Shown here piece by piece: positions 12,641-40,108 of a stretch of 64,000 nucleotides of DNA. How positions within the stretch are numbered: the stretch's first letter is position 1; the number at the start of each line of letters is the position of its first letter. Where the stretch lies: positions 96,001 to 160,000 of the forward strand of contig CAWJKT010000014.1 in assembly GCA_963843375.1 (NCBI GenBank), written 5' to 3'. The DNA is from an uncultured Pseudomonadota bacterium. Its GTDB lineage: Bacteria; Oederibacteriota; Muellerivitia; Muellerivitales; Muellerivitaceae. The notes under the pieces are model-generated. The model made no database searches. It worked only from the letters and a program-made list of their open reading frames with translations, and was not told the DNA's origin. A program made the position numbers and the translations under genes.

Positions 12641-15600
12641 ATGAAAAAGGCCTCTTTTCTTGGAGTTAAAGTACTTTCCCAACGATTAGGACGACTAGTT
12701 CCACTGTTCGTTTTTCCAATTCTGCTTACTTCCTCATGTTTTTTAACCATAGTGAAACAAGCCAATGCCGCTATTACCTTTGATGCGGCGGATTCCACCA
12801 GGGCCAATACGCAGAGTGTGACGTTTGACCACACGGTTAGTGGCCAAGAAACCTTGTTAATTCTCCAAGCGGATATCAGATATGGTTTCGGCGGGGCAGT
12901 TTCTGTCATCTCGGCGAATTATGGGGGGGTACCACTAACCCTTGTGCTTTCCGATCAGGATACGACATTTAATGACTTGGAGACTTGGTACCTGTTGTCT
13001 CCCGCAAGTGGTCCGAGCAGCGTCGTTGTAAACTTAACTGGAACCCCGACCGCCGGGAATTATGGAATCCTCAGTTACGATGGTGTTGATCAAACAACTC
13101 CGTTGGGAGTTACGTTTTTCGCCGCCAATGCCGCCAATACTTCGCAAACATTTAATGTCACCAGCACAACGGCCAATAGTGTTTTGCTTTCGAATTTTCT
13201 TTGGAATTCAAATTCCGTCAATATAAACGAATTTGGCGCGGGGCAAACCCAGAGATGGTCTGAAAGCAGTTCCCGTAGCTCAGAGGGAGACGATTTTTTT
13301 ACAACCACGGTCGGGTCGAATTCAATGAGTTATACTCTTTCCGGTTCCGTAGCTGCCGATGGTGAAATAGTTGAAATCATACCGGCTCCAACACAGACCC
13401 CGACGAATACCGCAACCAACACCACGACGGATACGGTTACGTCAACCCCGACGGTGACTCTCTCGCCCACAAGTACCCCGACGGATACGGCAAGCTATAC
13501 AACAACGGAAACGACGACGAATACGGCGACTTTGACCCCGACGGCGACACCTCAGCCGCGGCTGATTCTATCGTGGAATAACGAACCGGCGTCCCAGGCC
13601 TATTTATATAACCAGGCGAATGTGACAGGAATTCAGGTGGTACTGAAGGCGTTTGGACAGGAGCCGGTATCGGTAAGCCAACTGGCTTTTGGATTGGGTG
13701 GAACCCTGGGGTATACGGAAGTGTTAACAGGAACTGTGGCATTGTACCCGGATGCAGGGACGAATGAGACGTTGGGGGTTTATAACGGGGCACCCAGCCC
13801 GACACCGATTGCGACTGGAAGCTTTTCGGTCAACGGGTCAGTTACCTTTGGCGGATTGGCAAATTTAGCAGTGAATCCAGCAACGGGGCCCCAAACTCTG
13901 CTTTTGGTTTTTAGCCTCCAAGCCAATGGTGGAGAGACCTTTAACAATACGATTAGCCCTTCATCGATTGTGGCTGCGGGTGTAACGACGGGGACGCCTG
14001 CTTTGGTTTTGGGATCATTGATCAACGGAAATACGTTTACGGTCACGGGTCCCACGGCAACGCCAACCGCAACGCCAACGAATACGGCGACCAACACGGC
14101 AACCTTGACTGCGACGGTAACAGCGACGAACAGCCCGACTTTCACCACAACCCCGACCCCAACCAACACGCCGGTCAATCCCCCGGTAACGGTAGCTCTG
14201 TCGGTACCAACAGTAAGCCTGACAGTGATCCCGGGGACTGCCGGGGTGACGGTGATACAGTTGCAAGTGACCAACAATAGCGCAACTGAGGGAGTATCAC
14301 TGTTATCAATTGTTTTAGATGGTACCAGTTTTAACGACTCAGCCGGAATAGCTCAGGTAAATCTTTATGATTCAACGGGCTTGGTAACGAGCGGGACATT
14401 TAAGGCTTCGGGAGCGCCCTTGACTTTGGTTTTGGCCCCACTCGAAACCTTGGGGGCCTCGGGGTCGGCCACTGCGACACAATCCTTTGTGGTTACCTAT
14501 GATTTCTCTAACGACCAGGTAGCGACCAACTACAGTTTGGGGTTAGGCATCGGTAGTTTGACTGGTACCGGGGTTTTGAGTGGAAAGCCGATTACTGTTA
14601 CGGGATTGCCGCTGGGTGGAAACACAATCACTGTGGTTTTGCCGACCTCAACCCTCACCAATACAGCCACGAACAGCGCGACGAGTACGGCAACCCCTAC
14701 GGCGACCTTCACGACAACGGACACTCCCACGGATACGGCAAGCTATACAGCGACGGAAACAGCGACGAACACGACGACCTTAACGCCCACAGTGACGCCC
14801 CAATCCCGGTTGGTACTATCGTGGAATAACGAACCGGCGTCCCAGGCCTATTTTTACAATCAGGCCAATGTGACGGGAATCCAGGTGGTATTGAAGGCGC
14901 TTGGACAGGAGCCGGTTTCAGTGACCCAAATTTCCTTTGGATTGGGCGGAACGCTTTTGAGCGGGGAGGTAGTGACAGGAAGCGTGGCATTGTTCCCAGA
15001 TACAGGTACGGGCGGAGATGATGGAGGAGGAAACGGGCTCTATACAGGTGGTGGGAGCGCATTGGCAACCGGGAGTTTTACGGGTGGAGCGGTAACTTTT
15101 GGGGGAATGACGAATTTGGTGGTGAATCCGACGGGAGCGCCCCAAACTCTGCTGTTGGTGTTTACCCTTCAAGCCAACGGCGGGGAGACTTTTAACAATA
15201 CGATTAGCGGCAATTCGATTACGGCGGTGAGTGCGGATTCGGGGCTCCCGGTTTCGGTTTTTGGGACATTAATCAACGGGAATACTTTTACGGTAACGGG
15301 TCCAACGGCGACGCCTTCATTCACTCCGACCAATACGGCGACGAATACGGCGACGAATAGCGCAACGAATACCGCGACGAATACGGCGACATCAACCCCT
15401 ACAGAAACATTCACGACGACGAACACCCCGACGGATACGGCGACCAATACGGTGACGAATACGGCTACCGCTACGACCACAAATACGCCCACAGATAGCG
15501 CGACGAATACCGCAACCAATACGGCGACCTTCACGACAACGAACACCCCGACAGATACGGCGACCAATACGGCGACGAATACGACTTCCGCTACGACTAC

Positions 15601-18600
15601 TGATACAGCCACGAACAGCGCGACGAGTACGGCAACCCCTACGGCGACCTTCACGACAACGGACACTCCCACGGATACGGCAAGCTATACAGCGACGGAA
15701 ACAGCGACGAACACGACGACCTTAACGCCCACAGTGACGCCCCAATCCCGGTTGGTACTATCGTGGAATAACGAACCGGCGTCCCAGGCCTATTTTTACA
15801 ATCAGGCCAATGTGACGGGAATCCAGGTGGTATTGAAGGCGCTTGGACAGGAGCCGGTTTCAGTGACCCAAATTTCCTTTGGATTGGGCGGAACGCTTTT
15901 GAGCGGGGAGGTAGTGACAGGAAGCGTGGCATTGTTCCCAGATACAGGTACGGGCGGAGATGATGGAGGAGGAAACGGGCTCTATACAGGTGGTGGGAGC
16001 GCATTGGCAACCGGGAGTTTTACGGGTGGAGCGGTAACTTTTGGGGGAATGACGAATTTGGTGGTGAATCCGACGGGAGCGCCCCAAACTCTGCTGTTGG
16101 TGTTTACCCTTCAAGCCAACGGCGGGGAGACTTTTAACAATACGATTAGCGGCAATTCGATTACGGCGGTGAGTGCGGATTCGGGGCTCCCGGTTTCGGT
16201 TTTTGGGACATTAATCAACGGGAATACTTTTACGGTAACGGGTCCAACGGCGACGCCTTCATTCACTCCGACCAATACGGCGACGAATACGGCGACGAAT
16301 ACGGCTACCTCTACAACCACAAATACAGCTACGTCAACCCCGACTCAAACAGCTACATTCACCACCACCAGCACCCCCACGAACACCGCGAGCAGTACTC
16401 CCTCTGCCACCCCGACGGCTACCTTTTCAACACCTGATGTAAGTGTTGCCCTGTTTGGCGGTTTGGGGCCATCCACTCAAATTCCGGGAGCATCCAACAT
16501 TCCGGACTTAGAAGTGGTGGTTAGTAACAATAGTGCCGAAGGAATTAGTTTGGTCGATATAGTGTTTTCGTCAAATGGCCCGGGAAATGCGGGGATAACA
16601 CTTGTAAGTTTATATAGAGGTAGTGGCGATGCTCCGGCAAGTCTTGTGCAAAGCGGTCCTTATAGCGCCAGCAATACGGTTACATTGGGTTTGCCGCTCC
16701 TGGACAATATTCCATCCGGCCAGGCACAAACCTATACCGTCGCATTTGATTTCTCGAATACAGCCCCGCCAGGGGCCTATGCGGCGATATTGACAAGTTT
16801 GCAAGGGGTCGGACAGACATCGGGTTTTCCGCTCCAAGTTACGGGAGAGCCCGTGACAGGAGTGACGATTACTATTGCCGATTCAACTTTTACTCCAACA
16901 TCTACGGCTACCAACACAACCTCTAACACTCCGACCAACACTGCCACGAATACCGCAACCAATACGGCGACTAACACGGCTACAAATACCCCCACGTACA
17001 CAACCACCAATACTGCGACTAATACAGGTACATCTACCGCTACGAATACGACGACATCGACGACTACCCCTACTCCCACTAACACAACCACTAACACACC
17101 CACGAATACAGCGACGAATACGGCTACACCTACACCTGTTGATCCCCCTGTAGAAGTGGTGCAGTTGCTGACTCCAGTGACTATTGGAGTAATCCCCGGC
17201 ACAGCCGGGGTAACAGTGATGCAGTTTGCGGTGACGAATACCAGCACAACGGAAGGGGTATCTCTATTGTCTCTGACGCTCACGGGGACAACCACGGGAA
17301 CAGCAAGCGATATTAACGGGATAACGCAAGTAAAGCTTTACGACCCTTCAGGTCAGATAACAGGAGATACCTATGAATCGAGCTTTTTGACCCTGGGGTT
17401 GGCACCGGAGATAATGCTGGGAATAGCGGGATCGCCTTCTGCGGCGCAGACTTTCTACGTGACCTATGACTTTTCAGTGTCCCAATTAAGTGGGAACTAC
17501 GCGGTGACGGTCTTGGCCGGAGGATTGACGGGGACAGGAACTTCGACCGGAAAACCAATAATGGTTACAGGATTGCCGGTAGGAGGGAATCTGGTCACGG
17601 AGTCCCTGCCGACGGCTACGCCAACAAACACAGCAACGAATACGGACACGAGCACCGCCACCAATACCCCGACCAATACCGCGACCAATACGACTACCTA
17701 TACCTCCACGAGCACTCCTACTCTAACTCCTACGGAAACCACCACCAACACGCCCACTAACACAGCCACTAGTACATCCACGAACACGACCACGGCCACG
17801 ACTACCAATACCGCGACCAATACGGTTACGAATACCACAACCAATACAGCTTCAAATACCGCAACCTACACAACCACCCTCACCGCAACGATGACTCCCA
17901 CTTCAACGGCGACACCTTATCCCCCATACACTTTGGCTTTCCAGACGCCTTTCCCATCATTTATAGCCGGCGCATCGACTGGTCCCCTGACGATCCAGGT
18001 TCAAAATTCACTGGGTGGTCCAGCGACTTTCCCGACGGCGATAACTTTGGATCTTTCGGCTACGACCACCGGCGATTACAATTTCTCGCTCACTCAGGGA
18101 GGGGGGGCGGTTACCTCCTGTACTCTCCCCTCTGGAACCTCAAGCCAAGTTGTCTATTACACGGGCTTTAAGGCGGAGGTTCAGTCCTTGAATGTGACCG
18201 CCCTTGCCGCCATCCCAACTCCCTCAGTTTCCCAGGCTGCGACTGTTTTCCCGGCTGCTTACAGCAAGTTGCAAGTGCTGTTTCCAAATCAAAGTTCGGA
18301 CCCTGGAAAACCTAACACCAATAATACGGGACGAATCGGCCTTCCCAATTCGGTCGCGTCTGGCAACCCCGTGACCGCCACCGTAAACGCTGTCGATACT
18401 TTCTTCAATCCCGTCACGGTCAATATCAGCGGTCATCCGGTGACATTTAAGACTACGGATGGAACTCCGCAGAACTCCGCGGTCTTTACATCCGACACGG
18501 TCAATGCCCCTATCATATTTATCAACCCTGGTCCCCAAACTTTGACTGCTGGTGATTCGGAGACCACTTTTACCGGAAATAGCGATCAAATTACGATCTT

Positions 18601-19402
18601 GCAAGGGACGAACAGCGACGAATTAAACGTCGTCCACGGCATGCCGAACCTGTCCACGGTCATCTTGGGCCAAACGGGCGTGGAGGTACTCACTTTCAAT
18701 TTGAATGTCGAGAACGGAACCCATAACATCAAAATCAACAACTTGACCATAAATGCCCTGGATCAGGCGGGACCCTCGGGGTCGGGGGTGACCCTTGATA
18801 CCGCTTTCGAATCCTTGATCCTGGAAGGGCCATCCACGGTTCTCTCCCAACCGATCACCTTGGACGTTTCAGGATCCGGTTCGACCTCCGCCGTATTCCC
18901 GGGTCCCATCACCCTAGTGAACGGTTCCTCTCTGCCCTTGACTCTGCTTGCTGATATCCTGCCCAACGCCACGGTCAATACAGTCCTTTTATCTCTAGGA
19001 CAAAATGGGATTTCCGCCAATGACTCAACCAGCGGTGTGACGGTTGTATCCACCTGCTTCGGTGATTCCACCTGTTTCCCAATGGATTCAAATCTGATGC
19101 TGTTTAGGACTGGTGACATCGCGAGCACCTATGGCAACTATCCCAACCCTTTCCACCCCGAAATGGGCGATACAACGATTGAGTTTAATCTGTCGACTCC
19201 CCTGTCCTATACCTTGGGAATTTATGACATCCTTGGGAGGAAAGTGAAAATTTTCCAGAGCAACGGTCCACAATCCGGACTTCAACAATTGTCATGGGAT
19301 GGAAAAAACGACGCCGGTGTTTATGTCTTGAGTGGGATTTACTATGCCCAATTGAACGTGAGCGGCAATAAATATCTTCTGAAAATAGCGGTGGTGAAAT
19401 AA
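12641..19402 (+). CDS. Giant (~2250 aa) modular surface protein/adhesin with Thr-rich linkers and FlgD-Ig/T9SS-like CTD
   Basis: Signal peptide, repeated beta-sandwich modules separated by TNTA/TPT tracts, CTD NYPNPF...WDGKN...GIYY...KIAVVK. Confidence 0.85.
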   Translation: MKKASFLGVKVLSQRLGRLVPLFVFPILLTSSCFLTIVKQANAAITFDAADSTRANTQSVTFDHTVSGQETLLILQADIRYGFGGAVSVISANYGGVPLTLVLSDQDTTFNDLETWYLLSPASGPSSVVVNLTGTPTAGNYGILSYDGVDQTTPLGVTFFAANAANTSQTFNVTSTTANSVLLSNFLWNSNSVNINEFGAGQTQRWSESSSRSSEGDDFFTTTVGSNSMSYTLSGSVAADGEIVEIIPAPTQTPTNTATNTTTDTVTSTPTVTLSPTSTPTDTASYTTTETTTNTATLTPTATPQPRLILSWNNEPASQAYLYNQANVTGIQVVLKAFGQEPVSVSQLAFGLGGTLGYTEVLTGTVALYPDAGTNETLGVYNGAPSPTPIATGSFSVNGSVTFGGLANLAVNPATGPQTLLLVFSLQANGGETFNNTISPSSIVAAGVTTGTPALVLGSLINGNTFTVTGPTATPTATPTNTATNTATLTATVTATNSPTFTTTPTPTNTPVNPPVTVALSVPTVSLTVIPGTAGVTVIQLQVTNNSATEGVSLLSIVLDGTSFNDSAGIAQVNLYDSTGLVTSGTFKASGAPLTLVLAPLETLGASGSATATQSFVVTYDFSNDQVATNYSLGLGIGSLTGTGVLSGKPITVTGLPLGGNTITVVLPTSTLTNTATNSATSTATPTATFTTTDTPTDTASYTATETATNTTTLTPTVTPQSRLVLSWNNEPASQAYFYNQANVTGIQVVLKALGQEPVSVTQISFGLGGTLLSGEVVTGSVALFPDTGTGGDDGGGNGLYTGGGSALATGSFTGGAVTFGGMTNLVVNPTGAPQTLLLVFTLQANGGETFNNTISGNSITAVSADSGLPVSVFGTLINGNTFTVTGPTATPSFTPTNTATNTATNSATNTATNTATSTPTETFTTTNTPTDTATNTVTNTATATTTNTPTDSATNTATNTATFTTTNTPTDTATNTATNTTSATTTDTATNSATSTATPTATFTTTDTPTDTASYTATETATNTTTLTPTVTPQSRLVLSWNNEPASQAYFYNQANVTGIQVVLKALGQEPVSVTQISFGLGGTLLSGEVVTGSVALFPDTGTGGDDGGGNGLYTGGGSALATGSFTGGAVTFGGMTNLVVNPTGAPQTLLLVFTLQANGGETFNNTISGNSITAVSADSGLPVSVFGTLINGNTFTVTGPTATPSFTPTNTATNTATNTATSTTTNTATSTPTQTATFTTTSTPTNTASSTPSATPTATFSTPDVSVALFGGLGPSTQIPGASNIPDLEVVVSNNSAEGISLVDIVFSSNGPGNAGITLVSLYRGSGDAPASLVQSGPYSASNTVTLGLPLLDNIPSGQAQTYTVAFDFSNTAPPGAYAAILTSLQGVGQTSGFPLQVTGEPVTGVTITIADSTFTPTSTATNTTSNTPTNTATNTATNTATNTATNTPTYTTTNTATNTGTSTATNTTTSTTTPTPTNTTTNTPTNTATNTATPTPVDPPVEVVQLLTPVTIGVIPGTAGVTVMQFAVTNTSTTEGVSLLSLTLTGTTTGTASDINGITQVKLYDPSGQITGDTYESSFLTLGLAPEIMLGIAGSPSAAQTFYVTYDFSVSQLSGNYAVTVLAGGLTGTGTSTGKPIMVTGLPVGGNLVTESLPTATPTNTATNTDTSTATNTPTNTATNTTTYTSTSTPTLTPTETTTNTPTNTATSTSTNTTTATTTNTATNTVTNTTTNTASNTATYTTTLTATMTPTSTATPYPPYTLAFQTPFPSFIAGASTGPLTIQVQNSLGGPATFPTAITLDLSATTTGDYNFSLTQGGGAVTSCTLPSGTSSQVVYYTGFKAEVQSLNVTALAAIPTPSVSQAATVFPAAYSKLQVLFPNQSSDPGKPNTNNTGRIGLPNSVASGNPVTATVNAVDTFFNPVTVNISGHPVTFKTTDGTPQNSAVFTSDTVNAPIIFINPGPQTLTAGDSETTFTGNSDQITILQGTNSDELNVVHGMPNLSTVILGQTGVEVLTFNLNVENGTHNIKINNLTINALDQAGPSGSGVTLDTAFESLILEGPSTVLSQPITLDVSGSGSTSAVFPGPITLVNGSSLPLTLLADILPNATVNTVLLSLGQNGISANDSTSGVTVVSTCFGDSTCFPMDSNLMLFRTGDIASTYGNYPNPFHPEMGDTTIEFNLSTPLSYTLGIYDILGRKVKIFQSNGPQSGLQQLSWDGKNDAGVYVLSGIYYAQLNVSGNKYLLKIAVVK
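14661..16301 (+). repeat. Identical-looking ~699-bp direct repeat (14661-15359 and 15603-16301, offset 942)
   Basis: Sequences match by eye; ORF track shows identical antisense ORFs 942 bp apart; diverged third copy at ~13480-14090. Confidence 0.92.
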
Positions 19403-21089
19403 TGATCAAGGAACGCCGCGCGACTTTAGCTGGAATTCCGCTAAAGGCCCACTGTGGACATATCGCAGCTCTTTTCCTAGGTATGTTCACGTTTGCTGCC
19501 CTTTCCGCAACCATGGCACAGACTTTGAGTACGGGCGGGGTGGAATCTCCTTTTGAACTGGGAGGATCCGCTTGGGCCCAGGGAATGGGTGGGGCTGTCG
19601 CTGCGGTCTCGGGTTATGGGGATAGTTTTTTCGAGAATCCCGCGTCCCTCGCGACGGTCCAGGATCACGAAATCCTGACGTTCCACGCGCCCTTGTTCCT
19701 CGACACCCTTTATGATTCGGTTGGTTATGTCCAGCCAGTCGGCCGTAATACCAGTTTCGGTTTAGCTTTGAATCGATTGGGGGTTTCAAACATTTTGGAA
19801 ACCACCACCAACATCCAGGCCCTCTCCAACTTTTCTTTTGCGGAGTATGAGGGGCTTTTGGGTTATGGATTCCGCCCGTTACCGAATTTGGATTTTGGAG
19901 GCAACGTAAAATTCGTCTTTGAACAATTGGGAAGTTACCAGGGAAGCGGCGGAGGCTTGGATCTGGGCCTTTTGTATCACTTTTCCACTACCCGGGCGGA
20001 TTTTAATCTGGTCGGGGTGCGGAATATCACTCTGGGGTTCTCAGTTTCCAACGTTCTTCAACCGCAAACCAAGCTATTCCAACTGGCGGATAATCCGGCC
20101 CGTGTTTATCGTCCGGCCTTCGCTTACTATTATGAATTTCCTGGATCCCAAAGCGATTTGTGGGCAACGGTTGAGGGTGAAATTCCGGACAGCGGTGAAA
20201 AGCTCGTCCGCGGGGGGGTGCAATACGGATGGAAGAAAATGATTTTCGTCCGTGCGGGTTTTGATGGGGTGGGCCCAACTGCGGGTGCGGGATTACGTTA
20301 TTATGATTTTGAGTTTGATTACGCTTATGATCAGCAGGATTTGGGAGCCTTGAACCAGTTTTCTCTGACTTACCGTTTTGGACATTATGTGGACCCGCTG
20401 GAAGCTCAAAAAATTGACCTGTTAAAATGGGTGGCCCAAAGTTACACCAAAGACAATGATTTTGACCCGGCCATCAAAGCCTGGCAAAACGTACAGCGTG
20501 AATTTCCAGACGACACGGAAGCTTCCCGGGCCATCCGGGAAATCCAACAACAACGAAAAGACCTGGTTCAGGATCAACTCAAGATGGCGCGATCTGCCAT
20601 GAACCGGGGCGATTTTGAGAAGGCGGTTCCGCTGATTGCCAAGGTGTTAAGTTTGGACCCGGGAATTCCGAGGCCAAAGCGCTCTTAAGCCAAGTCGATA
20701 AAAAAACGTTGATTTCGACCAATTATACCCGCGGGGTTGAGGCTTATAGCCGTGAAGATTATGGCTTGGCGATTCAATACTTGGAAATGGTCTACGAAGT
20801 GGATACCCATTACCGGGATGTCAATTTCCTTTATCACGACGCCCAAAGCCATTATCTTCCCCTGGAGTCCATGCCAAAGGATTTAACCGAGCTTTATGCC
20901 CAGGGAGTGAATTACTATATAAGCGGTGATTACCAGAAAGCCATTGAGTCTTGGGAGAAAGTGTTGGACAAGAGCCCCAAAAATTTTCTTGTTCGTCGTA
21001 ACATCGAGGAAGCGCGAAGCCGCTTAAAGGACAAGGCGATTCCGGGATCTTCCCCCGCCGGAGATCAGGAGCCTATTAACAAACCATGA
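19402..21089 (+). CDS. PorV-like beta-barrel fused to C-terminal TPRs (frameshift at ~20664)
   Basis: GGSAWAQGMGGA...ENPASL, barrel end FDYAY...SLTYRFG, then TPRs; adding one A in GGGAATTCC gives DPGNSEAKALLSQVDKKTLISTNY, joining 20709-21089. Confidence 0.8.
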
Positions 21090-23479
21090 ACTTAAACCCT
21101 TTTATTTATCGAATTCTTTCGCGCCTTCCTTTCGAACCCAAACGGCGACTTTTTCGCCTGGAAGTGGAAGCTAAAGACATTGAGCTCCTGACGGTCAAAG
21201 ATTTTGTCCAAAGGGTTTGTGATTCGGCGGGTTGTACCCCTAAGGAAACCTCCAATATCAAGCTTGCAATTGATGAGGCCTGCAGCAATATCATCCGTCA
21301 CGCCTACAAGGATAAAGCTGACGGGAAAATCGTCTTGGAGATGGGAATCGGTTTTGCCGACTTGATGATCAAAGTCATTGATTACGGCAAGCCGTTCGAT
21401 TTCCGGGGGGTCAAAGATCCGGACCTGAATCATTACGTTGACATCGGAAAAAAAGGCGGGCTTGGAATATGGCTCATCAAGAAAGTCATGACCGATGTTC
21501 GTTATACGGCTTTTCCGGATCACAATGAGCTGATACTTTATCGCCTTCTTTCAAAAGCCCCGCCCAAGGAATTGGGCCTCAAAAAGGGAAGTTACTCGAT
21601 TTCGACGAAGTTCTCCTTGGGATCGATTGTTTTGATATTTTTCATCATCGCCTCGGCTTTCTTTTATCTCAATAAACAACAGCAAGCGCGGGTTTTTCAA
21701 CAACAAAGGGAAAACGTGGTGGCGACTCTTCAGACCATGTCTTCTGAAGCTGGCATTTTTATGGCACGCAAAAGCGACCTTGAGTTGGACCGTTTGATTC
21801 GGGAGGTGCTCCGGGGGGACAAAGACAGGGTTTTAAGTTATGCCTTTTTCGTCAGTCCTGAGGGCAGGTATCTGGCGCATTCCGATTTAAACCAACTTTT
21901 TAAGGTTTATTCGCCGCCACCTGATGTTCAAATGACCCGGAATCCGGGCATTCAAATCTTCCGAATAAAGAAAACCGAGGGTGTCCTGACGGATTATGCC
22001 ACAGCCGTTTATTATCACGGACAATGGATGGGTGAGGTCCACTTGGGTGAAAGCGACGCCGCCATCCAGCAAATAGCCTCCAGGGTGAAAATCGATTTGG
22101 CGAAACTGATGGGATTAATCGTTCTTGTCAGCGTTATCGGCCTTTATTTCCTTTCTCGCATTTTCATTAAGCCTTTCCATAAAATTTTGGAAGGGGTCCA
22201 TGCCATGAGCATGGGCAATTTAAACGCAAAAATCGACGTGGAAAGCCAGGACGAATTCGGCCAATTGGCCAATATATTCAACGACATGACTACTAAAATC
22301 CAGGATTCCCAGAAGGGAATGGTGGAAAACGAGAGAATGCAAAAGGAAATGCAGGTGGCCCAGGAAATCCAGCATACCCTTTTGCCTGGTGAGTTTCCTC
22401 AAATCGAAGGCTACGAGATTGGGGCCACCTATCGGGCTGCCAAGGAAGTCGGGGGGGACTATTATGACTTTTTTTGGGTCGACCCGACCACGCTTGGAAT
22501 CGTAGTAGCGGACGTTTCGGGCAAGGGCGTGCCCGGCTCGCTGGTCATGACCATGATCCGGACGGCCATGCGTCTGGAATCGCGGGGAAACCGGTCATCG
22601 TCAAGTGTTTTGGCCAAAGTTAACCAGCATGTCACTGCGGACATGAAGCGGGGGATGTTCGTGACGATGTTTTATATCATTTTGGATTCCCGAAACCGCT
22701 CGATCAATTTTTCCAGCGCCGGGCACAATCCCATGATCCTATACCGGGGAAAAACGAAGGAAGTTTACTTTCTGAAGCCCAAGGGTTTTCCGGTGGGGAT
22801 TGATCTTCCGGAAGAGGATATGTTTGTGAAAAACATGGCGCTTCAAAAGGTCAGCCTCGAGAAAAACGACATGCTTGTGATTTATACCGACGGAATTACG
22901 GAAGCCATGAATCCCGAAAGCGAGCAGTTCGGCGAGGACAGGCTCATTAAGGTCATAAAGGAAAATTCTCATCTCACTCCGGCGGAGTTCGTGGATAAAC
23001 TTAATGAGGCCATCGCCCAATTCACCCGTGGAGCGGAGCAGAACGATGACATTACGATTGTGGCCATTAAAGAAAAAATGAAGGCCGAGAACGTGGAGTT
23101 CAAGTTCCGGAAAAAACTCTTGGATTTGGTCGAAAAGAAAGGTTTGTCCGTGGCGGAGGCCTGCCGACAAATGAACACATCCACTAATACCTATTACCGG
23201 TTCAAGAAAATATTTGTGGAGAAGGGAAAAGATGGATTGAAGCCGGTAAAAAATAAAAAGCGAGGGGAAATTGGGGAACTTCCTCTTCCCCAGCAGCAAG
23301 CGGTGATGGCGATGGTTCGGGAGCACCCGGAATACGGGGCAAAGCTGATCATGGAAGCGATCGAGAAAAGTTCTAATCCTCCCATGAAGGTCGATCAAAA
23401 GTTGGTTTCGGAGTTCTTGAAGCGAAAAGGGCTAATGGATGTGAAGGCTCGCGAAGCGCTTCGGCACCAACGAGGTTGA
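21086..23479 (+). CDS. Fusion: RsbW-like anti-sigma kinase + 2 TM/periplasmic domain + HAMP + SpoIIE/PP2C phosphatase + C-terminal HTH
   Basis: LAIDEACSNIIRHAY, DYG, GGLGIWLI; DEFGQLANIFNDM; EVGGDYYD, ADVSGKG, YTDGITEA, DDIT; SVAEACRQM..STNTYYRF. Confidence 0.9.
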   Translation: MNLNPFIYRILSRLPFEPKRRLFRLEVEAKDIELLTVKDFVQRVCDSAGCTPKETSNIKLAIDEACSNIIRHAYKDKADGKIVLEMGIGFADLMIKVIDYGKPFDFRGVKDPDLNHYVDIGKKGGLGIWLIKKVMTDVRYTAFPDHNELILYRLLSKAPPKELGLKKGSYSISTKFSLGSIVLIFFIIASAFFYLNKQQQARVFQQQRENVVATLQTMSSEAGIFMARKSDLELDRLIREVLRGDKDRVLSYAFFVSPEGRYLAHSDLNQLFKVYSPPPDVQMTRNPGIQIFRIKKTEGVLTDYATAVYYHGQWMGEVHLGESDAAIQQIASRVKIDLAKLMGLIVLVSVIGLYFLSRIFIKPFHKILEGVHAMSMGNLNAKIDVESQDEFGQLANIFNDMTTKIQDSQKGMVENERMQKEMQVAQEIQHTLLPGEFPQIEGYEIGATYRAAKEVGGDYYDFFWVDPTTLGIVVADVSGKGVPGSLVMTMIRTAMRLESRGNRSSSSVLAKVNQHVTADMKRGMFVTMFYIILDSRNRSINFSSAGHNPMILYRGKTKEVYFLKPKGFPVGIDLPEEDMFVKNMALQKVSLEKNDMLVIYTDGITEAMNPESEQFGEDRLIKVIKENSHLTPAEFVDKLNEAIAQFTRGAEQNDDITIVAIKEKMKAENVEFKFRKKLLDLVEKKGLSVAEACRQMNTSTNTYYRFKKIFVEKGKDGLKPVKNKKRGEIGELPLPQQQAVMAMVREHPEYGAKLIMEAIEKSSNPPMKVDQKLVSEFLKRKGLMDVKAREALRHQRG

Positions 23480-23504
23480 CAGGGTTTAAGGCTAAAGTGA
23501 TAAT
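23476..23504 (+). promoter_or_regulatory. Putative sigma70 promoter for the STAS gene
   Basis: TTGACA-17 bp-GATAAT, 33 bp upstream of ATG 23538. Confidence 0.5.
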
Positions 23505-23537
23505 AAGCCCGCGGAGGGCCCAATATTCGGAGGAAGT

Positions 23538-23900
23538 ATGGAAAATATTTCGGTAAGTGTATCAGAACATCCCCAAAATAAAGAAATCACCCTCCTGGCC
23601 GTTAAAGGTTTTATCGATACGACCACGGCTCCGGAGTTTGAGAAGAAGTTTCTTACGGTATTGGGCGAAAAGAAATTCAAGTTCGTTGTTGATTTAAAGG
23701 ATGTCAATTACATCAGCAGCGCGGGTTGGGGCATTTTTATCAGTGAGATTAAACGAATTCGGAACCAAAAAGGGGATTTGGTGCTGGTCGGCATGAATCC
23801 CGAGGTCTCGGAGGTTTTCGAGCTTTTGGAATTTAACACCATTTTAAAGTCTTTTCCAAATGTCGAAACCGCCATTAAGAAAGGTTTTGAAAAACCGTAA
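23538..23900 (+). CDS. STAS anti-sigma factor antagonist (RsbV/SpoIIAA-like)
   Basis: GFIDTTTAP, VDLKDVNYISSAG phosphoacceptor motif; RBS GGAGG. Confidence 0.92.
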   Translation: MENISVSVSEHPQNKEITLLAVKGFIDTTTAPEFEKKFLTVLGEKKFKFVVDLKDVNYISSAGWGIFISEIKRIRNQKGDLVLVGMNPEVSEVFELLEFNTILKSFPNVETAIKKGFEKP

Positions 23901-23939: not shown

Positions 23940-25079
23940 ATGGAATCGGCTGCATTAACCTCCCTCATTGAAATTGAGGGAAAAAACTTCACCATTGAAA
24001 CCTCTCCTATAACGGGTAAGAATCGTCTATCCTCCCTGATTCAATTGGGTGGACGGACTCTTTCTCAGCGTGATTTTGAATTACCTGAGGGGCTGGATGA
24101 AGATGGATTCAAGCATTATCTGCAGGAAACCCATCGCGTTCGTTCGGTCGAATTGGAATCCCTATTTCGTTTGAGCCGAAAAATCGAGGAAAAACCTACG
24201 GCCGATGCTTGTTGGAAAATCGGGGTGATTTTCCTTTCAAACGGTTTTTACGAGGATTCACGCCAGAAATTTCAAAAAGCCCTCGAGATGGAACCCAGGC
24301 ATTTACAAGCCATTAAAAGCTACGGAATCACACTGACCCTTCTGGAAGATTTTGACGGCGCCTTGGCTTCCCTGAATCAAGCGAGGGAATTGGGGCCTTC
24401 GTTTGCGGATATTTATTACCATCTGGGCAATGTTCACTTGTACAAACGCGAACTGGATGAATCGGTTCAATGCTATCTGCAAGCCCTTCAAATCAACCCC
24501 CGTTATGCGGACGCTCGTTTAAGATTGGCCACGGCTTGTGTGGGTTATTTGGCCCAATCTTCCAATCAATTAACGGAGCCTAAAGTAATAGAGTTGTCCG
24601 AAAGGACCAGGACAGAAGCGGAAACGGCGGCCACACTCAACCCAAAAGTTCGAAACCGGGCCTATATGATGGCTATGGATTTTTTGAGAAGTAAAAAATA
24701 TTCACAAGCTTTTCAATCTTTTATTGAAGTTCGTCCGCGTTATGTACCCCGAATAGGCGATGAGATTATTTTTTTCTTTACCTTAACCCTGTTATACGGA
24801 AGCGAAGGTATAGATCAACAGATGACGGATCAATATGTCGATAAATTGTGCAGGGTGATCGAAGAATTTCCTCATTACGCTGATCTGCATCACCATTTGG
24901 GTACCGCTTATTTGATTAAATGCCGCTTTGACGTGAACCGGTCACTGAAGGAGTTCAAAAAAGCCCTGGAAATTAATCCACAATTTCAAAAAGCTATGAC
25001 TAATTCGGCCGACACGGAGGATTTGCATAAGAAAGTATTGACCGTTTTGAAAAAAGCTATTATGCCGCAGGGAAATTAA
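23940..25079 (+). CDS. Cytoplasmic TPR protein
   Basis: Multiple TPRs (YYHLGNV, ALQINPRYADA, ALEINPQF); no signal peptide. Confidence 0.8.
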   Translation: MESAALTSLIEIEGKNFTIETSPITGKNRLSSLIQLGGRTLSQRDFELPEGLDEDGFKHYLQETHRVRSVELESLFRLSRKIEEKPTADACWKIGVIFLSNGFYEDSRQKFQKALEMEPRHLQAIKSYGITLTLLEDFDGALASLNQARELGPSFADIYYHLGNVHLYKRELDESVQCYLQALQINPRYADARLRLATACVGYLAQSSNQLTEPKVIELSERTRTEAETAATLNPKVRNRAYMMAMDFLRSKKYSQAFQSFIEVRPRYVPRIGDEIIFFFTLTLLYGSEGIDQQMTDQYVDKLCRVIEEFPHYADLHHHLGTAYLIKCRFDVNRSLKEFKKALEINPQFQKAMTNSADTEDLHKKVLTVLKKAIMPQGN

Positions 25080-31621: not shown

Positions 31622-31672
31622 CAGGGAACCTCCAGAAACTGGTGAAGAGGGCGCCGGTAAAGCAAAAGTTGC

Positions 31673-33011: not shown

Positions 33012-33182
33012 GGTTTTTCCTTTGGATGGCTTATTTATAAGGTTTGAAATTAAACAACAGGTTGGAAAAAATTCAAAGCCAGTTCCTCTTAAATTATTTT
33101 ACCGCATTTTTTAAATCTATAACTAAAACCCTTTAAACCATGCAATTGAAAGCGGTCCCATTGGCGTAATACGTAGCGGGGT

Positions 33183-34705: not shown

Positions 34706-34748
34706 GGTTTATTATTTTACTTCAAACTTAAACGATAGCGAGGGAAGG

Positions 34749-34766
34749 CTATACCGAATCTTTACC
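34749..34766 (+). promoter_or_regulatory. 11-bp-period direct-repeat box CTATACCGAATCTTTACC (OmpR/PhoB-type)
   Basis: Same motif at 40130, 40152, 46772 and reversed at 46611; ~105 bp upstream of 34873 operon. Confidence 0.6.
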
Positions 34767-34872
34767 TTATTTGGCACCGCTTTTTTTCCCGAATTTGTAT
34801 GCCGGGACGTGATATGGAATCATGTGATAGGATAAAACCATTAAGCAGGGCCGATTTAAACTAAGGGTATTT

Positions 34873-36057
34873 ATGCGATTTTGCTGTGAAATTTCAAAAT
34901 TGAAGCTGGTTTTTTTTCTAACTTTAGGATTTATAACCCCGTTTTTTGCCTGGGCTCAGTGTCCTAATAATCCTGCCCTCACCCCGACCGCTTGGGCTGG
35001 AGCCGGAGTCACCGCCAATTATTCTGGCGGGGATTACACGGTCGTTGGCACCGGAGAAAATGAGTATGGTCAGGATTATGAAACTGGATACACTGATTCA
35101 ATAACTATGGTGGGAGATGGACAAATACAGACAGAGGTCACAAGCATTACGGGCTATATGAATTTTGACACTTCATCCGGGATTTTTATCCGAGGTGGTA
35201 CTAACGCCGGCGCGGATGGAGGTCTCCTATGGATAGGAGGGTCGTCAAGTTCCCAATATCAATTGGCTGAGAGGATCAATGATCAGGCTTTAACCCAAAT
35301 CCAGTCCGGATCTGCTTCTCTCCCTTATTGGCTTCGTCTACAAAATTCGGGAGGGATCCTCTATCCCTCGATTTCCACTAACGGGAGTACTTGGACCTCC
35401 TTGCCGGTTTTGAACCTAATTGGCGATTCTGAATTTGCCGCGGGCAGTACCTTGACTTACGGATTAATGGTCTGGAGTGGAAGTGTCAGTGCCAGTCAAC
35501 CTACCACGGCTATTTTTGAAAATGTTTGCGTGACCTCCATCTCTCCGATCCCCACTTACACCCCGATTCAAACGATCACTTCCACCAGCACTTTCACTCC
35601 GAGCTTCACCTCGACTTTGACACCGGTCCAAACCTTCACTCCCACTTCAACTTTCACGTCCAGCTTTACCTTTTCCGCGACCAATTCACCCACTATCACC
35701 AACACGCCTACGATTACTCCCAGTCCCACCAATACCCTAAGCCCCCAACCTACCGAGACGCCCACCATTACGGCCACTCCTCCTCCCGGTGTTAAGGTCT
35801 GGCCAAATCCCTTCACGCCCTTGCTTCCCACTAACACCATCACCCATTTCTTTTTGCCCGCCAATCATGGCGCGGGACAGTTGTTGATAGCTGACTTGAA
35901 AAGGAAATTGGTTCGTTCATTGGATTTTGGGGCGGTGGTGGATGTTCAATGGGACGGTAAAGATAATGGGGGCAATGTCGTTCCATCGGGAGTTTATCTT
36001 TATCTTTTGGAATCGAGCGGAACGGTTCAACGGGGAACCATCACCGTGATGCGATGA
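34873..36057 (+). CDS. Secreted protein: beta-sandwich (lectin-like) domain, TPT linker, FlgD-Ig-like CTD
   Basis: Signal peptide; PYWLRL...STNGSTW jelly-roll-like motif; VWPNPF...WDGKD...SGVYLY. Confidence 0.8.
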   Translation: MRFCCEISKLKLVFFLTLGFITPFFAWAQCPNNPALTPTAWAGAGVTANYSGGDYTVVGTGENEYGQDYETGYTDSITMVGDGQIQTEVTSITGYMNFDTSSGIFIRGGTNAGADGGLLWIGGSSSSQYQLAERINDQALTQIQSGSASLPYWLRLQNSGGILYPSISTNGSTWTSLPVLNLIGDSEFAAGSTLTYGLMVWSGSVSASQPTTAIFENVCVTSISPIPTYTPIQTITSTSTFTPSFTSTLTPVQTFTPTSTFTSSFTFSATNSPTITNTPTITPSPTNTLSPQPTETPTITATPPPGVKVWPNPFTPLLPTNTITHFFLPANHGAGQLLIADLKRKLVRSLDFGAVVDVQWDGKDNGGNVVPSGVYLYLLESSGTVQRGTITVMR

Positions 36058-37904
36058 AATTTAAAACTCAATCCAACGCCAAGACAGCAAGACGCCAGGA
36101 AAACCTGAAGGTGTTTTGTTTTTGTATGAGAATTGAATTTCTTTTTTTTCTCGTTTTCATCCTGATGAATATTTTTACAATGCCGTTGTGGGCGGCGTTT
36201 TTGGATTTCAGCCCGCCCGCCCGGGAAGCGGCCTTGGGCGGGAACGGGGTGGCTTTGCCGGAAGGTACTTCCAGTTTGGCTTTTAATCCAGCGGGACTTG
36301 GCGATGAAAGCCGTTTCGAGATATCCGCCCGTTATGAGAACCTTTTTTCGGGAATTGAGGGCGACAACCTTTCCACCGGGAACTTGTCGGCGGTTTTTCC
36401 TTTAGAAGTAGGGGATGGGTTAGGTTTTTCCGTGGACCACTTTGGCGCCAATACCCTCCAGCAAGACCAGTTGCAAGCGGCTTTCGGTAAAAGTTTTGAC
36501 ACCAACTCCATTTTCTATCATTTGCGTTTGGGTGTTGATTTGTGCTACTTGCGCCAGCAATTTACCCTTTTGGCTCCATTGGCCGGCGTAAATCCCGCAA
36601 ATGTATCGGCGGGAGCTTTTTCGGTCGGGGCCGGGGCTCTTTACGATATTTTCAAATGGGGAACCCTTGGAATTTCCGTTGAGAACTTAAACCAGCCCAA
36701 CCTCGGGGTGGTGGGCCTTGACATGATCCCTATTCTGCTTCGTTATGGGGTTGCGGTTCGACCGAAGGTTGGGGAGGACCGATTAGCCATCACCCTCGCC
36801 CAATCCTTGAGCGCTGGTTCATTGGATACCCAGGGAGGGGCCGAATGGAATATCACCCGGTGGGGGGTGTCCATAAGAGCTGGAGGCGATGCCAATATGG
36901 GAGTAGCCGGATTTGGATGGCGGACCAATGGATTGACAATTGATTACGCCTACCAATTTTCCTGGAATCAAGCGCCATCCCTCAATGGGGTGGGCCTGCC
37001 CGGAAGCAGTCTTTTAGAAGTTGGATTTAGCTGGGAAAACACCTCGCGGGAAGAAAAGGTTTTCGACGAATTGCTTTTTAAAGGCCGGGAAGCTTTAAAG
37101 CTACAGCAGTGGAAAGACGCTTTTTGGGATTTTCAGCAGGCTTATCTGCTGAACCCCTCCGAACCTTCCGTACTTCAAGGCCGCTCGGAAGCCTTGAAAC
37201 AATACAACCTCCAACGCGCGGATGCTTATTTTCAAGCGGGGGTGAATGCCGAGAACCATGGATATTTCCCGGAAGCCCAAAGGGATTATGATTGGGCCGC
37301 CTCTTTGGCCCCGCAAGAAGGAAGGTATTCGGAAGCTGGGGAGCGGGTAAGAAAATCTTTGACCCAAGGAGCCTTAGAGGATCCAAGGGTAGGGGATATA
37401 CTGGAGAAATCAGTGGCTTTCATGAAATTGGGTGAAAATGGAGCTGCGGTGAAAAAAATCAATGAGGCTCTCGTTCTTTATCCTCGGGACGCTTTTCTCC
37501 AATTTGTCGCCAAGGCCTTCGCCCGAAAAGCCGTACCCGTGGCTGAACGGGAGGATAAAAAATTAGAGCAATTGGCGGCGGAAGCGGAAATTTTCCGGAG
37601 TAAAGGGCGTCTAGACCTGGCCCAGCAAACTTGGCAAGAGATACTTAAAGCGGATCCCAACAATGCGATGGCACGCGAAAACATAGCGGCTAACACCTCA
37701 ACGAGCCCCGCTCAAAACCTTACCGATTCCCAAAAAAACCAGATCCAGGCCCTTTTGCAAAAGGGATTGAAAGATTATGCCAACGGGGACACGGAAGCCG
37801 CTGAAAAGAATTGGGAGTCGGTTCTTCAGATTGACCCTCTCAATGTAAACGCCCTAAATAACTTGACCCGCGTCAAAATGGAGGAAGGTGGCGATCGAAA
37901 GTGA
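36054..37904 (+). CDS. PorV-like beta-barrel fused to C-terminal TPRs
   Basis: PAREAALGG...FNPAGL, ENLNQP, IDYAY, LEVGFSW barrel end, then several TPRs (ILKADPNN, VLQIDPLN); true start may be a later Met. Confidence 0.8.
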   Translation: MKFKTQSNAKTARRQENLKVFCFCMRIEFLFFLVFILMNIFTMPLWAAFLDFSPPAREAALGGNGVALPEGTSSLAFNPAGLGDESRFEISARYENLFSGIEGDNLSTGNLSAVFPLEVGDGLGFSVDHFGANTLQQDQLQAAFGKSFDTNSIFYHLRLGVDLCYLRQQFTLLAPLAGVNPANVSAGAFSVGAGALYDIFKWGTLGISVENLNQPNLGVVGLDMIPILLRYGVAVRPKVGEDRLAITLAQSLSAGSLDTQGGAEWNITRWGVSIRAGGDANMGVAGFGWRTNGLTIDYAYQFSWNQAPSLNGVGLPGSSLLEVGFSWENTSREEKVFDELLFKGREALKLQQWKDAFWDFQQAYLLNPSEPSVLQGRSEALKQYNLQRADAYFQAGVNAENHGYFPEAQRDYDWAASLAPQEGRYSEAGERVRKSLTQGALEDPRVGDILEKSVAFMKLGENGAAVKKINEALVLYPRDAFLQFVAKAFARKAVPVAEREDKKLEQLAAEAEIFRSKGRLDLAQQTWQEILKADPNNAMARENIAANTSTSPAQNLTDSQKNQIQALLQKGLKDYANGDTEAAEKNWESVLQIDPLNVNALNNLTRVKMEEGGDRK

Positions 37905-39313
37905 AGCTGACGACCAAATTTTTCCTTAGCCACGGCGGAGTCGTGGTGGTGTCACTCCTTGTCAGTTTCTTCCTAATATACGAAGGATCCCGTATTCTTT
38001 ATCAGAGACAGGCGAAAATGAGCCAAGCACAGGAAATATCCGATTTCGCCCTGGCTGCCAAGGAGGCCTTGATCCAACATGAGGATGTGGCCGTTTTGAA
38101 CTTCATGCGGACCGTTGTGAAAAATCCTATCGTTGCTTATGCGGCCTATTCGAATCCCTCTTCGGGCACCCATATTGTATTACCGGCTTTATTCCAAAAA
38201 GAATCATTTCCTTCGGAAGAAGAAAAATACGCTTCACCCAATTACCCTTTCCATCGCCGTTTTCAAAGCGGTCTGGAAACACTTGAGTGGACTGCTTCGG
38301 TGCGCTTGGAGAATGGAATTGCGGGCAGGGTCTGGCTGGGTTATTCCCAATCGGCGCTGGAAAAGGATTTGAAAGAACAAACGACAAAGTGGATGGATGT
38401 GGAAATGGAAGCTGGGGCTGCGGCCCTAATGATTGGTTTGTTGGTGTCACTATGGCTGGGCCGTCAAATGGCCTCGCCTTTGAGAAAAATCCGGGATGGC
38501 ACTCATCTTGTCCGTTTTGGAAAACTTGATTCGCTGGTGGAGGTTAATCGCAGGGATGAGATCGGAGATCTTGCCAGGGATTTTAATTCTATGGTGGTGC
38601 AGTTAAAGGAACTGGATGAAATGAAACGGGATTTCGTGTCGGGGGTCACACACGATCTGGGAACGCCCCTTCACGCCATTCGAAGCGCCATTAACTACCT
38701 TCAAGCCGGGGACGCTGGACCTCTAACGGAAAAACAATCCGACTACCTTTTGATGGTTGCCAATAGTACCGCCAACCTGACCGCTTTCATTAACAACCTT
38801 TTAACCACCGCGCGTATCGAAGCCGGCAAGGTCGATCCCTATCCGGAGCCCGTGGACGTTTTCGCCTTGATCAAAGAATTAGTGGATCTTTACCAGCCCC
38901 AAGCCCGGGAAAAAGGGGTCAAACTTACCTTAGCCCGGAAAACCCAGTACATTTCATTAGTCGCCGACGTGACCATGTTCCGCCAAATCGTATTGAATCT
39001 CCTTTCCAATGCCTTGAAATTCACTAACCAGGGTGAAGTGGGTATTTTTTTATCAGAGGAGGATGGAGATTTTCTTTTGGAAGTTCGAGACACGGGTATT
39101 GGAATCGATCCCCAGCACCATCAACTTATTTTCGATAAATTTTATCGGGTTCACCAACCTTCGGGAACTCCCGCTCGCCAGGGAAGCGGTTTGGGGTTGA
39201 CCATTGTTAAGGGCTTAGCCGAGTCCCACGGTGGGAAGGTGACGGTTGAAAGCGCTTTAAACAAGGGAAGTGTATTCAAAGTCGTTCTGCCCAAACAGCC
39301 AAGGCGGTTTTAA
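37901..39313 (+). CDS. HAMP sensor histidine kinase
   Basis: 2 TM, DEIGDLARDFNSM HAMP, THDLGTPL H-box, NLLSNALKF, DTGIG, GSGLGL. Confidence 0.95.
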   Translation: MKLTTKFFLSHGGVVVVSLLVSFFLIYEGSRILYQRQAKMSQAQEISDFALAAKEALIQHEDVAVLNFMRTVVKNPIVAYAAYSNPSSGTHIVLPALFQKESFPSEEEKYASPNYPFHRRFQSGLETLEWTASVRLENGIAGRVWLGYSQSALEKDLKEQTTKWMDVEMEAGAAALMIGLLVSLWLGRQMASPLRKIRDGTHLVRFGKLDSLVEVNRRDEIGDLARDFNSMVVQLKELDEMKRDFVSGVTHDLGTPLHAIRSAINYLQAGDAGPLTEKQSDYLLMVANSTANLTAFINNLLTTARIEAGKVDPYPEPVDVFALIKELVDLYQPQAREKGVKLTLARKTQYISLVADVTMFRQIVLNLLSNALKFTNQGEVGIFLSEEDGDFLLEVRDTGIGIDPQHHQLIFDKFYRVHQPSGTPARQGSGLGLTIVKGLAESHGGKVTVESALNKGSVFKVVLPKQPRRF

Positions 39314-39415
39314 AGAAAAATAAAAAACTGAATAAAATCGGCTGATGATTTTATTCTGAAACGTTTATTCTGAAAAAAGTTTATCTTAATTAAATCCGAA
39401 TTTCTGGAAGTGAAA

Positions 39416-40108
39416 ATGAAACATCCGTCGATTCTCATGATCGAAGACGATCTGTCCGTATCCACCTTGACTCGGGACCTTTTTTCGAAGGAAGGATATG
39501 AGATAAAGACGGTTTCGAACGGTTCGGACGGTTGGAATGCCCTCCAACGAGAGGAGTTTGACCTTTTGGTGTTGGACTTGGGTTTGCCCGACATGAATGG
39601 ATTGGATCTTTGCGCTCGTATTAAGAGGGATCCGGTACATGGCAAATTGCCTGTTTTTATCTTGACGGCTCTGGGTTCTTCTGAGGATATTGTTAGGGGT
39701 CTGGAAGCGGGTGCCGAGGATTATCTTCCCAAGCCCTTTAATGAGCGGGAGTTTCTCGCCCGAGCCAGAGCTATCCTCAGACGTCGGAAGCCCTCAGCGA
39801 CCCAGGATGAACCCCTCGTTTCTGGAAAGATCAAATTATCCCTATCGTCCCATGAAGCCTGGTGTTCGGAAAACCCAATCCAACTTACTTTGCGAGAGTT
39901 TGATATTCTCAGGATATTTCTGGGTAATCCCAGTAAAGCTCTGACGAGGGAGGAGATCGTGAAAATGGCCTGGGGCCCTGCCACAGCCATTGTTCCCAAA
40001 GTCGTTGACGTTCATATCGGCCATTTGAGGTTAAAACTGGGAACGGAAGGTAAAAGAATCGAAACCGTTCCCCAGGTTGGCTATAAGCTCATTCCCCCCA
40101 AGAAATAA
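39416..40108 (+). CDS. OmpR/PhoB-family response regulator
   Basis: IEDD, LDLGLPDMNG, YLPKPF, LTLREF, VDVHIGHLRLKL, GYK. Confidence 0.95.
   Translation: MKHPSILMIEDDLSVSTLTRDLFSKEGYEIKTVSNGSDGWNALQREEFDLLVLDLGLPDMNGLDLCARIKRDPVHGKLPVFILTALGSSEDIVRGLEAGAEDYLPKPFNEREFLARARAILRRRKPSATQDEPLVSGKIKLSLSSHEAWCSENPIQLTLREFDILRIFLGNPSKALTREEIVKMAWGPATAIVPKVVDVHIGHLRLKLGTEGKRIETVPQVGYKLIPPKK

Follow-up and report, generated by a model that had tools for sequence, protein, structure and literature searches.

Two gene cassettes, each joining a secreted protein, its own outer-membrane barrel and an inner-membrane sensor, lie between positions 12641 and 40108 of a 64,000-nucleotide stretch of DNA (the window) from an uncultured Pseudomonadota bacterium that GTDB places in Oederibacteriota (assembly GCA_963843375.1, contig CAWJKT010000014.1, positions 96,001 to 160,000). 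The encoding of cargo, barrel and sensor as one unit suggests that these uncultured bacteria may sense the state of an exported surface protein. All the genes described here lie on the + strand unless stated otherwise. Cassette 1 begins with a gene (12641..19402) for a 2253-aa secreted protein with a signal peptide, Thr-rich linkers, repeated domains and a C-terminal domain (CTD) like those of type IX secretion system (T9SS) cargo. It is followed by a PorV-like barrel with a periplasmic tail of ~230 aa that matches a TPR profile (19402..21089; barrel 1) and by an inner-membrane sensor (21086..23479; sensor 1) built as RsbW-type kinase, transmembrane (TM) segment, single Cache domain, TM segment, HAMP, SpoIIE/PP2C phosphatase and HTH. 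Next come a STAS protein (23538..23900), which has a Ser within a YISSAG motif and is a likely substrate of sensor 1, and a cytoplasmic TPR protein of 379 aa (23940..25079) devoid of hydrophobic segments, a probable fifth member of the cassette and candidate STAS partner. Cassette 2 encodes a 394-aa secreted protein with a Thr-rich linker and a CTD (34873..36057); a PorV-like 14-stranded barrel (residues 88-327) with a TPR tail of ~13 helices (residues 332-611; 36054..37904; barrel 2); a histidine kinase composed of TM, single Cache, TM, HAMP, HisKA (H251) and HATPase (37901..39313); and an OmpR-family response regulator with phospho-acceptor site D56 (39410..40108). Outside both cassettes, an S8 peptidase with a CTD precedes a TPR-less PorV-like barrel (8849..11649), which serves as an internal control.

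The gene order, domains and overlapping stop and start codons reported in the initial annotation were confirmed (TAATG at 19402, ATGA at 21086 and 36054, GTGA at 37901), as was its description of the barrel behind the S8 peptidase as TPR-less and without a sensor neighbour. The S8 peptidase gene likewise overlaps its barrel gene by ATGA (10624). No overlap joins the output genes, the STAS gene starting 58 bp after sensor 1 and the OmpR gene 96 bp after the kinase. The order given for cassette 1 stands, but the cassette probably reaches beyond 23900 to the TPR gene at 23940-25079, which lies downstream in 16 of 43 loci. The cassette 1 cargo had been called an adhesin, a label that we drop: a Pfam search with this protein gave no match, and only Thr-rich linkers (22% T), internal repeats and the CTD can be recognized. 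Its gene carries a 749-bp internal repeat (14661-15409 and 15603-16351, 97.9% identity), which appears to be a recent domain duplication. The two cassettes had been described as the same cassette occurring twice. They do share their gene logic, but they are not a duplication, because the barrels show hardly any similarity (BLASTP E 2e-4) and belong to separate clades; a recent duplication of one cassette is ruled out on the same grounds.

Barrel-TPR 1 reads as two open reading frames (ORFs; 19402-20688 and 20709-21089). Compared with an intact 563-aa ortholog from the same genus, one base is missing near 20657, and contigs from two of four sequencing runs, belonging to two studies, carry the extra base (the other two runs have no depth there). 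The split is therefore a one-base assembly error, and the intact ortholog and read contigs also rule out a pseudogene. Thus, the barrel-TPR fusion claimed earlier is upheld, but not as a single ORF in this assembly. Further genes in the window are apparently split by frameshifts (31894-34705, 54933-56619 and 566-1574), including those for a Thr-rich protein, LMF1 (33183-34705), and peptidase-like and vWA-like proteins, and the assembly is therefore indel-prone. Near-identical DNA was found in soil metagenomes.

Profile searches and structure prediction agree with the earlier suggestion that the barrels are related to PorV, although they stay under the family cut-off. With the PorV/PorQ profile NF033709 (cut-off 90), the three window barrels score 82.7 (barrel 1), 53.3 and 53.3 bits, and the cut-off is reached by 12 of the 24 matches listed for this genome. 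With the PorP/SprF profile TIGR03519 (cut-off 90.55 bits), barrel 2 scores 32.1 and barrel 1 is not among the listed matches. Barrel 2, the only barrel folded, is modelled with 14 strands, an N-terminal hatch and then ~13 helices (predicted local distance difference test, pLDDT, 76.5). In a structural search with this model, PorV chains (8gl6_F and 6h3i_F) rank 1 and 3 and FadL/TodX come next, with root-mean-square deviations of 4.4-4.8 Å for PorV versus 8-12 Å for FadL/TodX. A PDB sequence search with barrel 2 gave TPR matches only. An NPA motif is conserved in both barrels. Among 71 barrel tails of at least 60 aa in related genomes, Pfam assigns TPR to 24 and OmpA to 19, and the remainder are FlgD-Ig, fn3, SPOR (2), LysM (1), SH3 (1) or unassigned. 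Since sister barrels bear peptidoglycan-binding domains (OmpA, SPOR, LysM, SH3) at the same position, the TPR tail would lie in the periplasm. Barrel-TPR clusters are also widespread in the ESM Atlas, with automatic names such as Elusimicrobiota, Zixiibacteriota, Calditrichota and Spirochaetota.

These barrels belong to a T9SS-like background. This genome encodes ~19 PorV-like barrels, a local iterated profile picks out 75 CTD proteins in it, barrel paralogs number 19-40 per genome, and barrel genes lie directly behind CTD genes, whatever the passenger. Matches of the CTDs to Pfam FlgD_ig, CHU_C and TIGR04183 are weak, near or under cut-off. A SprA-like gene is found in 5/5 genomes (TIGR04189, E 1e-22 to 1e-35, frames of ~2000 aa, all under cut-off). 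The copy in this genome (C15:110969-114545, L326) is split by apparent indels, and its counterparts in four relatives measure ~2000 aa; genomes G003 and G036 have a further, shorter SprA-like match (~1100 aa). The PorU sortase profile gave nothing over cut-off in 4/4 genomes of the phylum, of which this one is 80% complete and the other three near-complete (partial matches in two), and the control genome G044 scored over cut-off. The GldM/PorM motor profile matched 0/5 genomes, with no positive control matching either. Tandem Ig- and fn3-tailed barrels occur in four genomes (C25:10998-14718, L319, in this genome; L153, L274, L301), and in this genome and L153 the pair directly precedes flagellar rod-like genes.

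The sensors are equipped for two different outputs. Cassette 1 contains the parts of RsbU/RsbV/RsbW partner switching, namely a PP2C phosphatase, an RsbW-type kinase and a STAS protein, with their catalytic and phospho-acceptor residues; kinase residues N68/D99/G124-G127 and phosphatase residues D458/D461/D476/D602/D655 are invariant in 13/13 sequences. Cassette 2 has the HisKA His, HATPase boxes, receiver Asp and winged helix of an OmpR-type two-component system. The periplasmic domain of sensor 1 is predicted to fold as a single Cache/PAS domain (pLDDT 93.6), with WalK, CitA and DcuS as the top structural matches of the model, and it is homologous to the Cache domain of the cassette 2 kinase (92%, E 5.5e-7). 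Homologous single-Cache inputs joined to differing outputs bear out the proposal of interchangeable output modules. No sigma factor was found among 25 scanned downstream genes or tails; a separate local profile covered one ECF (extracytoplasmic function) type only.

Linkage of barrel-TPR genes to HAMP sensors, which the initial annotation had left to a neighbourhood survey, is conserved in other genomes. The cross-phylum survey was sensor-first because a scan of barrel alignments gave no conserved pattern. Of 61 distinct RsbW-HAMP-SpoIIE sensors, 55 are immediately preceded by a barrel-TPR gene, in varied chromosomal contexts under ~ten phylum-level labels, which are as deposited and may in some cases be wrong. 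Among the names in the record titles are Latescibacterota, Ignavibacteria, Eisenbacteria, Zixiibacteriota, Omnitrophota, Krumholzibacteriia, Calditrichota, KSB1, Cytophagia, Deferribacteres and Spirochaetia. Candidate division FCPU426 is the title on some of the best named relatives of sensor 1, and the rest have another label or none; FCPU426 is given as Goldbacteria in the available text of PMC7031533. Sensor 1 has matches in 32/41 related genomes at E 1e-60, paralogs included, and the 80 loci of a metagenome scan yielded 6 full-length sensors. In the sensor survey, SpoIIE proteins with a different domain architecture mostly lack a barrel. The gene before the barrel encodes a CTD protein in 24 of 26 called loci outside the phylum-level relatives; the two others, like L043 and L044, have a gene of ~700 aa there, which is RNase R in L043. 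Within the family and order, the cargo at the orthologous position is a CTD protein of 488 to 3065 aa when complete, and the gene order with its overlapping codons is unchanged while cargo size varies six-fold. Downstream of this sensor type, STAS follows in most loci, and the remaining downstream genes differ between loci (ParA-like, GGDEF, TPR).

Cassette 2 is conserved within the family. Barrel 2 occurs in 14/41 genomes and the kinase in 15/41; both are common to the same 14 genomes, one of which holds both twice, and the additional kinase is partial and sits at the end of a contig. The two genes are adjacent in 15/16 loci, and OmpR follows the kinase in 14/16, the other two stopping at a contig edge. 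Neither query matched any of 16 genomes outside the family.

The initial annotation asked whether TPR-fused barrels adjoin HAMP sensors more often than TPR-less ones. They do: by a hand tally in five genomes (G000, which is this genome, G027, G029, G031 and G036), 9/29 TPR-tailed barrels versus 1/119 other barrels have a HAMP gene within the next two same-strand genes. The tally was not blind, all five genomes had sensor matches, barrels <420 aa were taken as non-TPR unread, and G026, whose long barrels were only partly fetched, was left out. A strict rule does not hold, and the idea that all TPR barrels have HAMP sensors is ruled out, with 20/29 lacking one. By coordinates only, in five genomes of other families, a same-strand HAMP gene lies at most 5.5 kb downstream of 8/65 long versus 0/84 short barrels (149 listed matches; 5 unlisted ones and 1 fragment left out); within 3.5 kb of long barrels, ~0.5 cases are expected by chance and 5 were observed. 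In a set of 198 barrels, none of 20 OmpA-tailed, 13 fn3-tailed or 27 tail-less barrels is followed by a HAMP gene within two genes. Five genomes of other phyla, picked because they hold cassette 1, contain three further barrel-TPR and sensor loci, and no short barrel with a sensor was seen in them. In a tree of the 198 barrels, with modest deep support, cassette-1, cassette-2 and ECF-linked barrels form separate clades, and further sensor-linked cases are scattered.

Besides these two outputs, a third occurs near barrels in this genome. An ECF sigma factor and an anti-sigma factor are encoded at most two genes away from each of three other short-TPR barrels (C16:26862-29552, L317; C12:7102-11191, L316; C11:291140-293825, L315), so that 5/6 of the TPR-tailed barrels here adjoin a transmembrane signalling unit. 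The periplasmic part of the anti-sigma factor is CTD/FlgD-like in two of the three loci, and the third anti-sigma gene appears split. In relatives, a barrel or its short TPR lies within 1.5 kb in 22 of 30 fetched anti-sigma loci (30 of ~60 matches). The anti-sigma factor might imitate a T9SS substrate and so report on secretion activity.

Other units stand beside barrels as well. L272:7712-12614 holds, on one strand, a CTD gene, a barrel-TPR, a FliG_M/FliG_C membrane protein, MotA and MotB, and the barrel-TPR thus appears linked to a motor-like unit. At L305:3281-5940, L308:3564-6389 and L148:6058-10054, a barrel-TPR is followed by a TPR-TM membrane protein (with HEAT repeats in L305), and two of these loci adjoin response regulators. 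A propeller-OmpA protein of PorE-like layout sits between barrel-TPR and Cache-HAMP-SpoIIE sensor at L162:4694-10149 and L103:5936-11488. At L152:4314-11135, a barrel-TPR and an opposite-strand gene precede sCache-HAMP-HD and HAMP-cyclase genes, which are possible further outputs.

How would the parts of a cassette work together? The domain identities, the gene linkage and the homology of the input domains are observed. On this basis we propose that T9SS-type shuttle barrels form the basis of a trans-envelope signalling module, a proposal that we regard as evenly poised between right and wrong. The CTD protein would be exported via the SprA-like translocon and, as Bacteroidota shuttles suggest, remain attached through its CTD to the PorV-like barrel of the neighbouring gene. 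The TPR tail would extend into the periplasm, where we infer that its conserved last repeat touches the single Cache domain of the sensor. Whether the barrel is loaded, pulled or correctly placed would then be relayed inwards by way of HAMP to an exchangeable output, namely a kinase/phosphatase switch acting on STAS in cassette 1 and a histidine kinase-OmpR pair in cassette 2. The likely job would be feedback on surface-protein display or attachment behaviour.

A TPR-Cache pairing is suggested by the tails themselves. Conservation along the tail peaks in the last TPR, though tails span 156 to 352 aa; Y166, W185 and N195 are conserved positions in the tail alignment (53 rows). TPR proteins with a signal peptide and without a barrel precede paralogous sensors and share the same end motif, 5 of 6 scoring 50-64 bits on the end-motif profile; median scores are 52 for cassette-2 tails and 34 for 20 sensor-less TPR barrels, the score being partly generic TPR consensus. 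Furthermore, in L048 and L117, where the barrel has an OmpA-like tail, a stand-alone TPR gene precedes the sensor. These gene arrangements suggest that TPR and Cache are the partners and that the barrel is one of the carriers of the TPR.

Several observations weigh against the trans-envelope module. Most TPR-tailed barrels in the tally are sensor-less, and six such barrels score at least 50 bits on the end-motif profile. The 58 cassette-1 barrels form essentially one clade, so that the large cassette-1 counts represent one or few events; kin are not independent, and P-values therefore overstate. Six of the 61 sensors have no barrel directly upstream: L027 has STAS there, L047 a barrel-less TPR and L147 one gene between, the barrel-TPR of L095 is nearby on the other strand, and L101 and L102 have none. 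One lineage keeps barrel-TPR and sensor with RNase R, not a CTD gene, upstream. The path for an outside signal is not obvious, because the tail joins the last strand and not the plug. Together, a tail of 160-350 aa and a Cache domain may fall short of a normal periplasm. Single Cache domains usually bind small molecules, and the top structural matches here are WalK, CitA and DcuS. As for CTD specificity, a profile of 24-26 cassette-1 CTDs from other lineages ranks the window cassette-1 CTD first of 75, but a control profile of 28 other CTDs (a few related cassettes included) also ranks it first, and the ranking is therefore rejected as specificity evidence. In addition, the S8 peptidase CTD scores nearly as high, and when the test was reversed the two sets overlapped and came apart only in part (p 0.002, related loci not being independent). 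Because many TPR barrels are sensor-less, because of the RNase R lineage, and because barrel-less TPR proteins precede the same sensors, the TPR-sensor pair may be the core unit and cargo presence only one possible input.

The same facts can be read as periplasmic quality control, in which the sensor would bind unexported or uninserted cargo CTD or barrel-TPR in the manner of PorA-PorY, and linkage would reflect biogenesis monitoring. This reading avoids the problem of spanning the periplasm, and it agrees with the soluble barrel-less TPR proteins that precede the same sensors and with the CTD-like periplasmic domain of anti-sigma factors beside barrel-TPRs. According to the available text of PMC12152298, the PorA CTD binds PorY in the periplasm without need for PorV or Sov. 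However, with the CTD as ligand the tail class should be irrelevant, yet it matters, and the lineage without an adjacent CTD gene nevertheless keeps barrel-TPR and sensor; we consider quality control unlikely. Quite improbable is co-regulation only, in which the sensor reads an unrelated small molecule and controls the operon or attachment, the TPR being a PorE-like structural anchor to T9SS parts or the cell wall. Sensors clustered with surface genes under their control are common, most TPR barrels have no sensor, and the Cache fold resembles small-molecule sensors. PorP-PorE-type B CTD complexes also employ a TPR protein as scaffold, as the accessible part of PMC9143113 reports. Yet co-regulation leaves unexplained the near-absence of sensors beside CTD-partnered OmpA-, fn3- and tail-less barrels, the repeated TPR-sensor pairing across barrel clades and without a barrel, and the fixed order with overlapping codons despite the six-fold change in cargo size. 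A FadL-like importer, whose TPR tail would hand a hydrophobic substrate to the sensor and whose CTD neighbour would bind or degrade it, is in keeping with the FadL/TodX structural matches, the conserved NPA motif and the Treponema FadL-like barrels with TPR tails proposed as importers (available text of PMC8407342), but is very improbable given the better rank and fit of PorV chains, the higher scores of PorV-family profiles, the position of barrels directly behind CTD genes whatever the passenger, and the presence of a SprA-like translocon.

If the trans-envelope module is correct, a shuttle talking to an inner-membrane sensor would provide a defined route for surface or attachment sensing. 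The T9SS shuttles known so far do no more than carry cargo and anchor it, and PorA-PorY, the only T9SS signal known, does not pass through the shuttle. The last TPR and the Cache domain would make a two-domain interaction that is easily tested in vitro. The background is of interest too, being a T9SS-like system outside the group in which T9SS was described, with a SprA-like gene, dozens of modular-tailed PorV-like barrels and no recognisable sortase. As a tentative and somewhat doubtful extension, PorV-like shuttles might constitute a receptor family with a docked T9SS-exported antenna, a TPR rod and interchangeable inner-membrane outputs. On that view the outputs might comprise the STAS switch, two-component systems, ECF/anti-sigma pairs, nucleotide cyclases or phosphodiesterases, and FliG-MotAB. 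If true, the family would be a new outside-in signalling class parallel to TonB-dependent signalling in ~ten mostly uncultured phyla.

Two other regions of the window deserve mention. On the - strand, 50847-54883 forms one operon with an outer-membrane-type gene (no Pfam match), a cupredoxin/carboxypeptidase-like periplasmic protein and a dCache-HAMP-adenylate cyclase, and judging from its gene content it appears to be a separate surface-to-sensor arrangement. At 58919-64000 lies an open-ended Gly-rich ORF of >1690 aa with a G+C content of 64% versus 49% for the window.

Outer-membrane proteins that control an inner-membrane transducer through a periplasmic domain are known from FecA-FecR-FecI, YfiBNR, RcsF-IgaA and NlpE-CpxA. 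FecA has a TonB-dependent barrel of 22 strands and carries its signalling domain at the N-terminus, and the outer-membrane parts of YfiBNR, RcsF and NlpE are lipoproteins. NlpE and RcsF are also named in the available text of PMC12152298. Unlike the FecA type, the cassette barrel is 14-stranded, with a C-terminal TPR rod and HAMP or anti-sigma outputs. Within T9SS, cognate shuttle-cargo pairs of Bacteroidota are in print (PMC12618676 and PMC9143113, in their accessible parts). Like the Bacteroidota PorV and PorP/SprF shuttles, as far as those sources describe them, the cassette barrels have 14 strands, genes directly behind a CTD gene and many paralogs; they differ in their fused periplasmic tails, linked sensors, non-Bacteroidota host and the lack of a full PorU among the matches found, and by profile score they are PorV-like rather than PorP-like. 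PorP-PorE-PG1035 also combines CTD cargo, a dedicated barrel and a periplasmic TPR-containing partner, but PorE, in the accessible part of PMC9143113, is a lipoprotein in its own right with a peptidoglycan-binding OmpA domain at its end, whereas the cassette TPR is fused, OmpA-less and next to a sensor gene. PorA-PorY-PorX-SigP likewise links T9SS cargo to an inner-membrane kinase and transcriptional output; the available text of PMC12152298 presents it as one global system in which PorA acts by its CTD in the periplasm, independently of PorV and with no barrel-TPR, in contrast to the per-locus cassettes here.

The STAS switch resembles SypE-SypA (PMC8256260) and SiaABC (PMC7647112), in which a kinase/phosphatase switch on a STAS protein controls biofilm, and SiaA shares two TM segments, HAMP and PP2C with sensor 1; in the available parts of these papers, SypE is a response regulator, SiaA has no fused kinase, and no barrel-TPR or CTD link is given. 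No paper joining T9SS with SpoIIE/STAS, nor one describing barrel-TPR, CTD cargo and sensor in combination, was found in the literature searched, a scope that most subscription papers and supplements fall outside. Closest in barrel architecture are Treponema pallidum TP0548/TP0859/TP0865, which have a 14-stranded barrel, an NPA-type hatch and a C-terminal periplasmic TPR bundle, but of three helices only; the accessible part of PMC8407342 reads them as fatty-acid importers and gives no cargo or sensor linkage. Set beside these systems, the cassettes are a real, conserved and apparently undescribed family, which is not of the FecA type and would work like cell-surface signalling.

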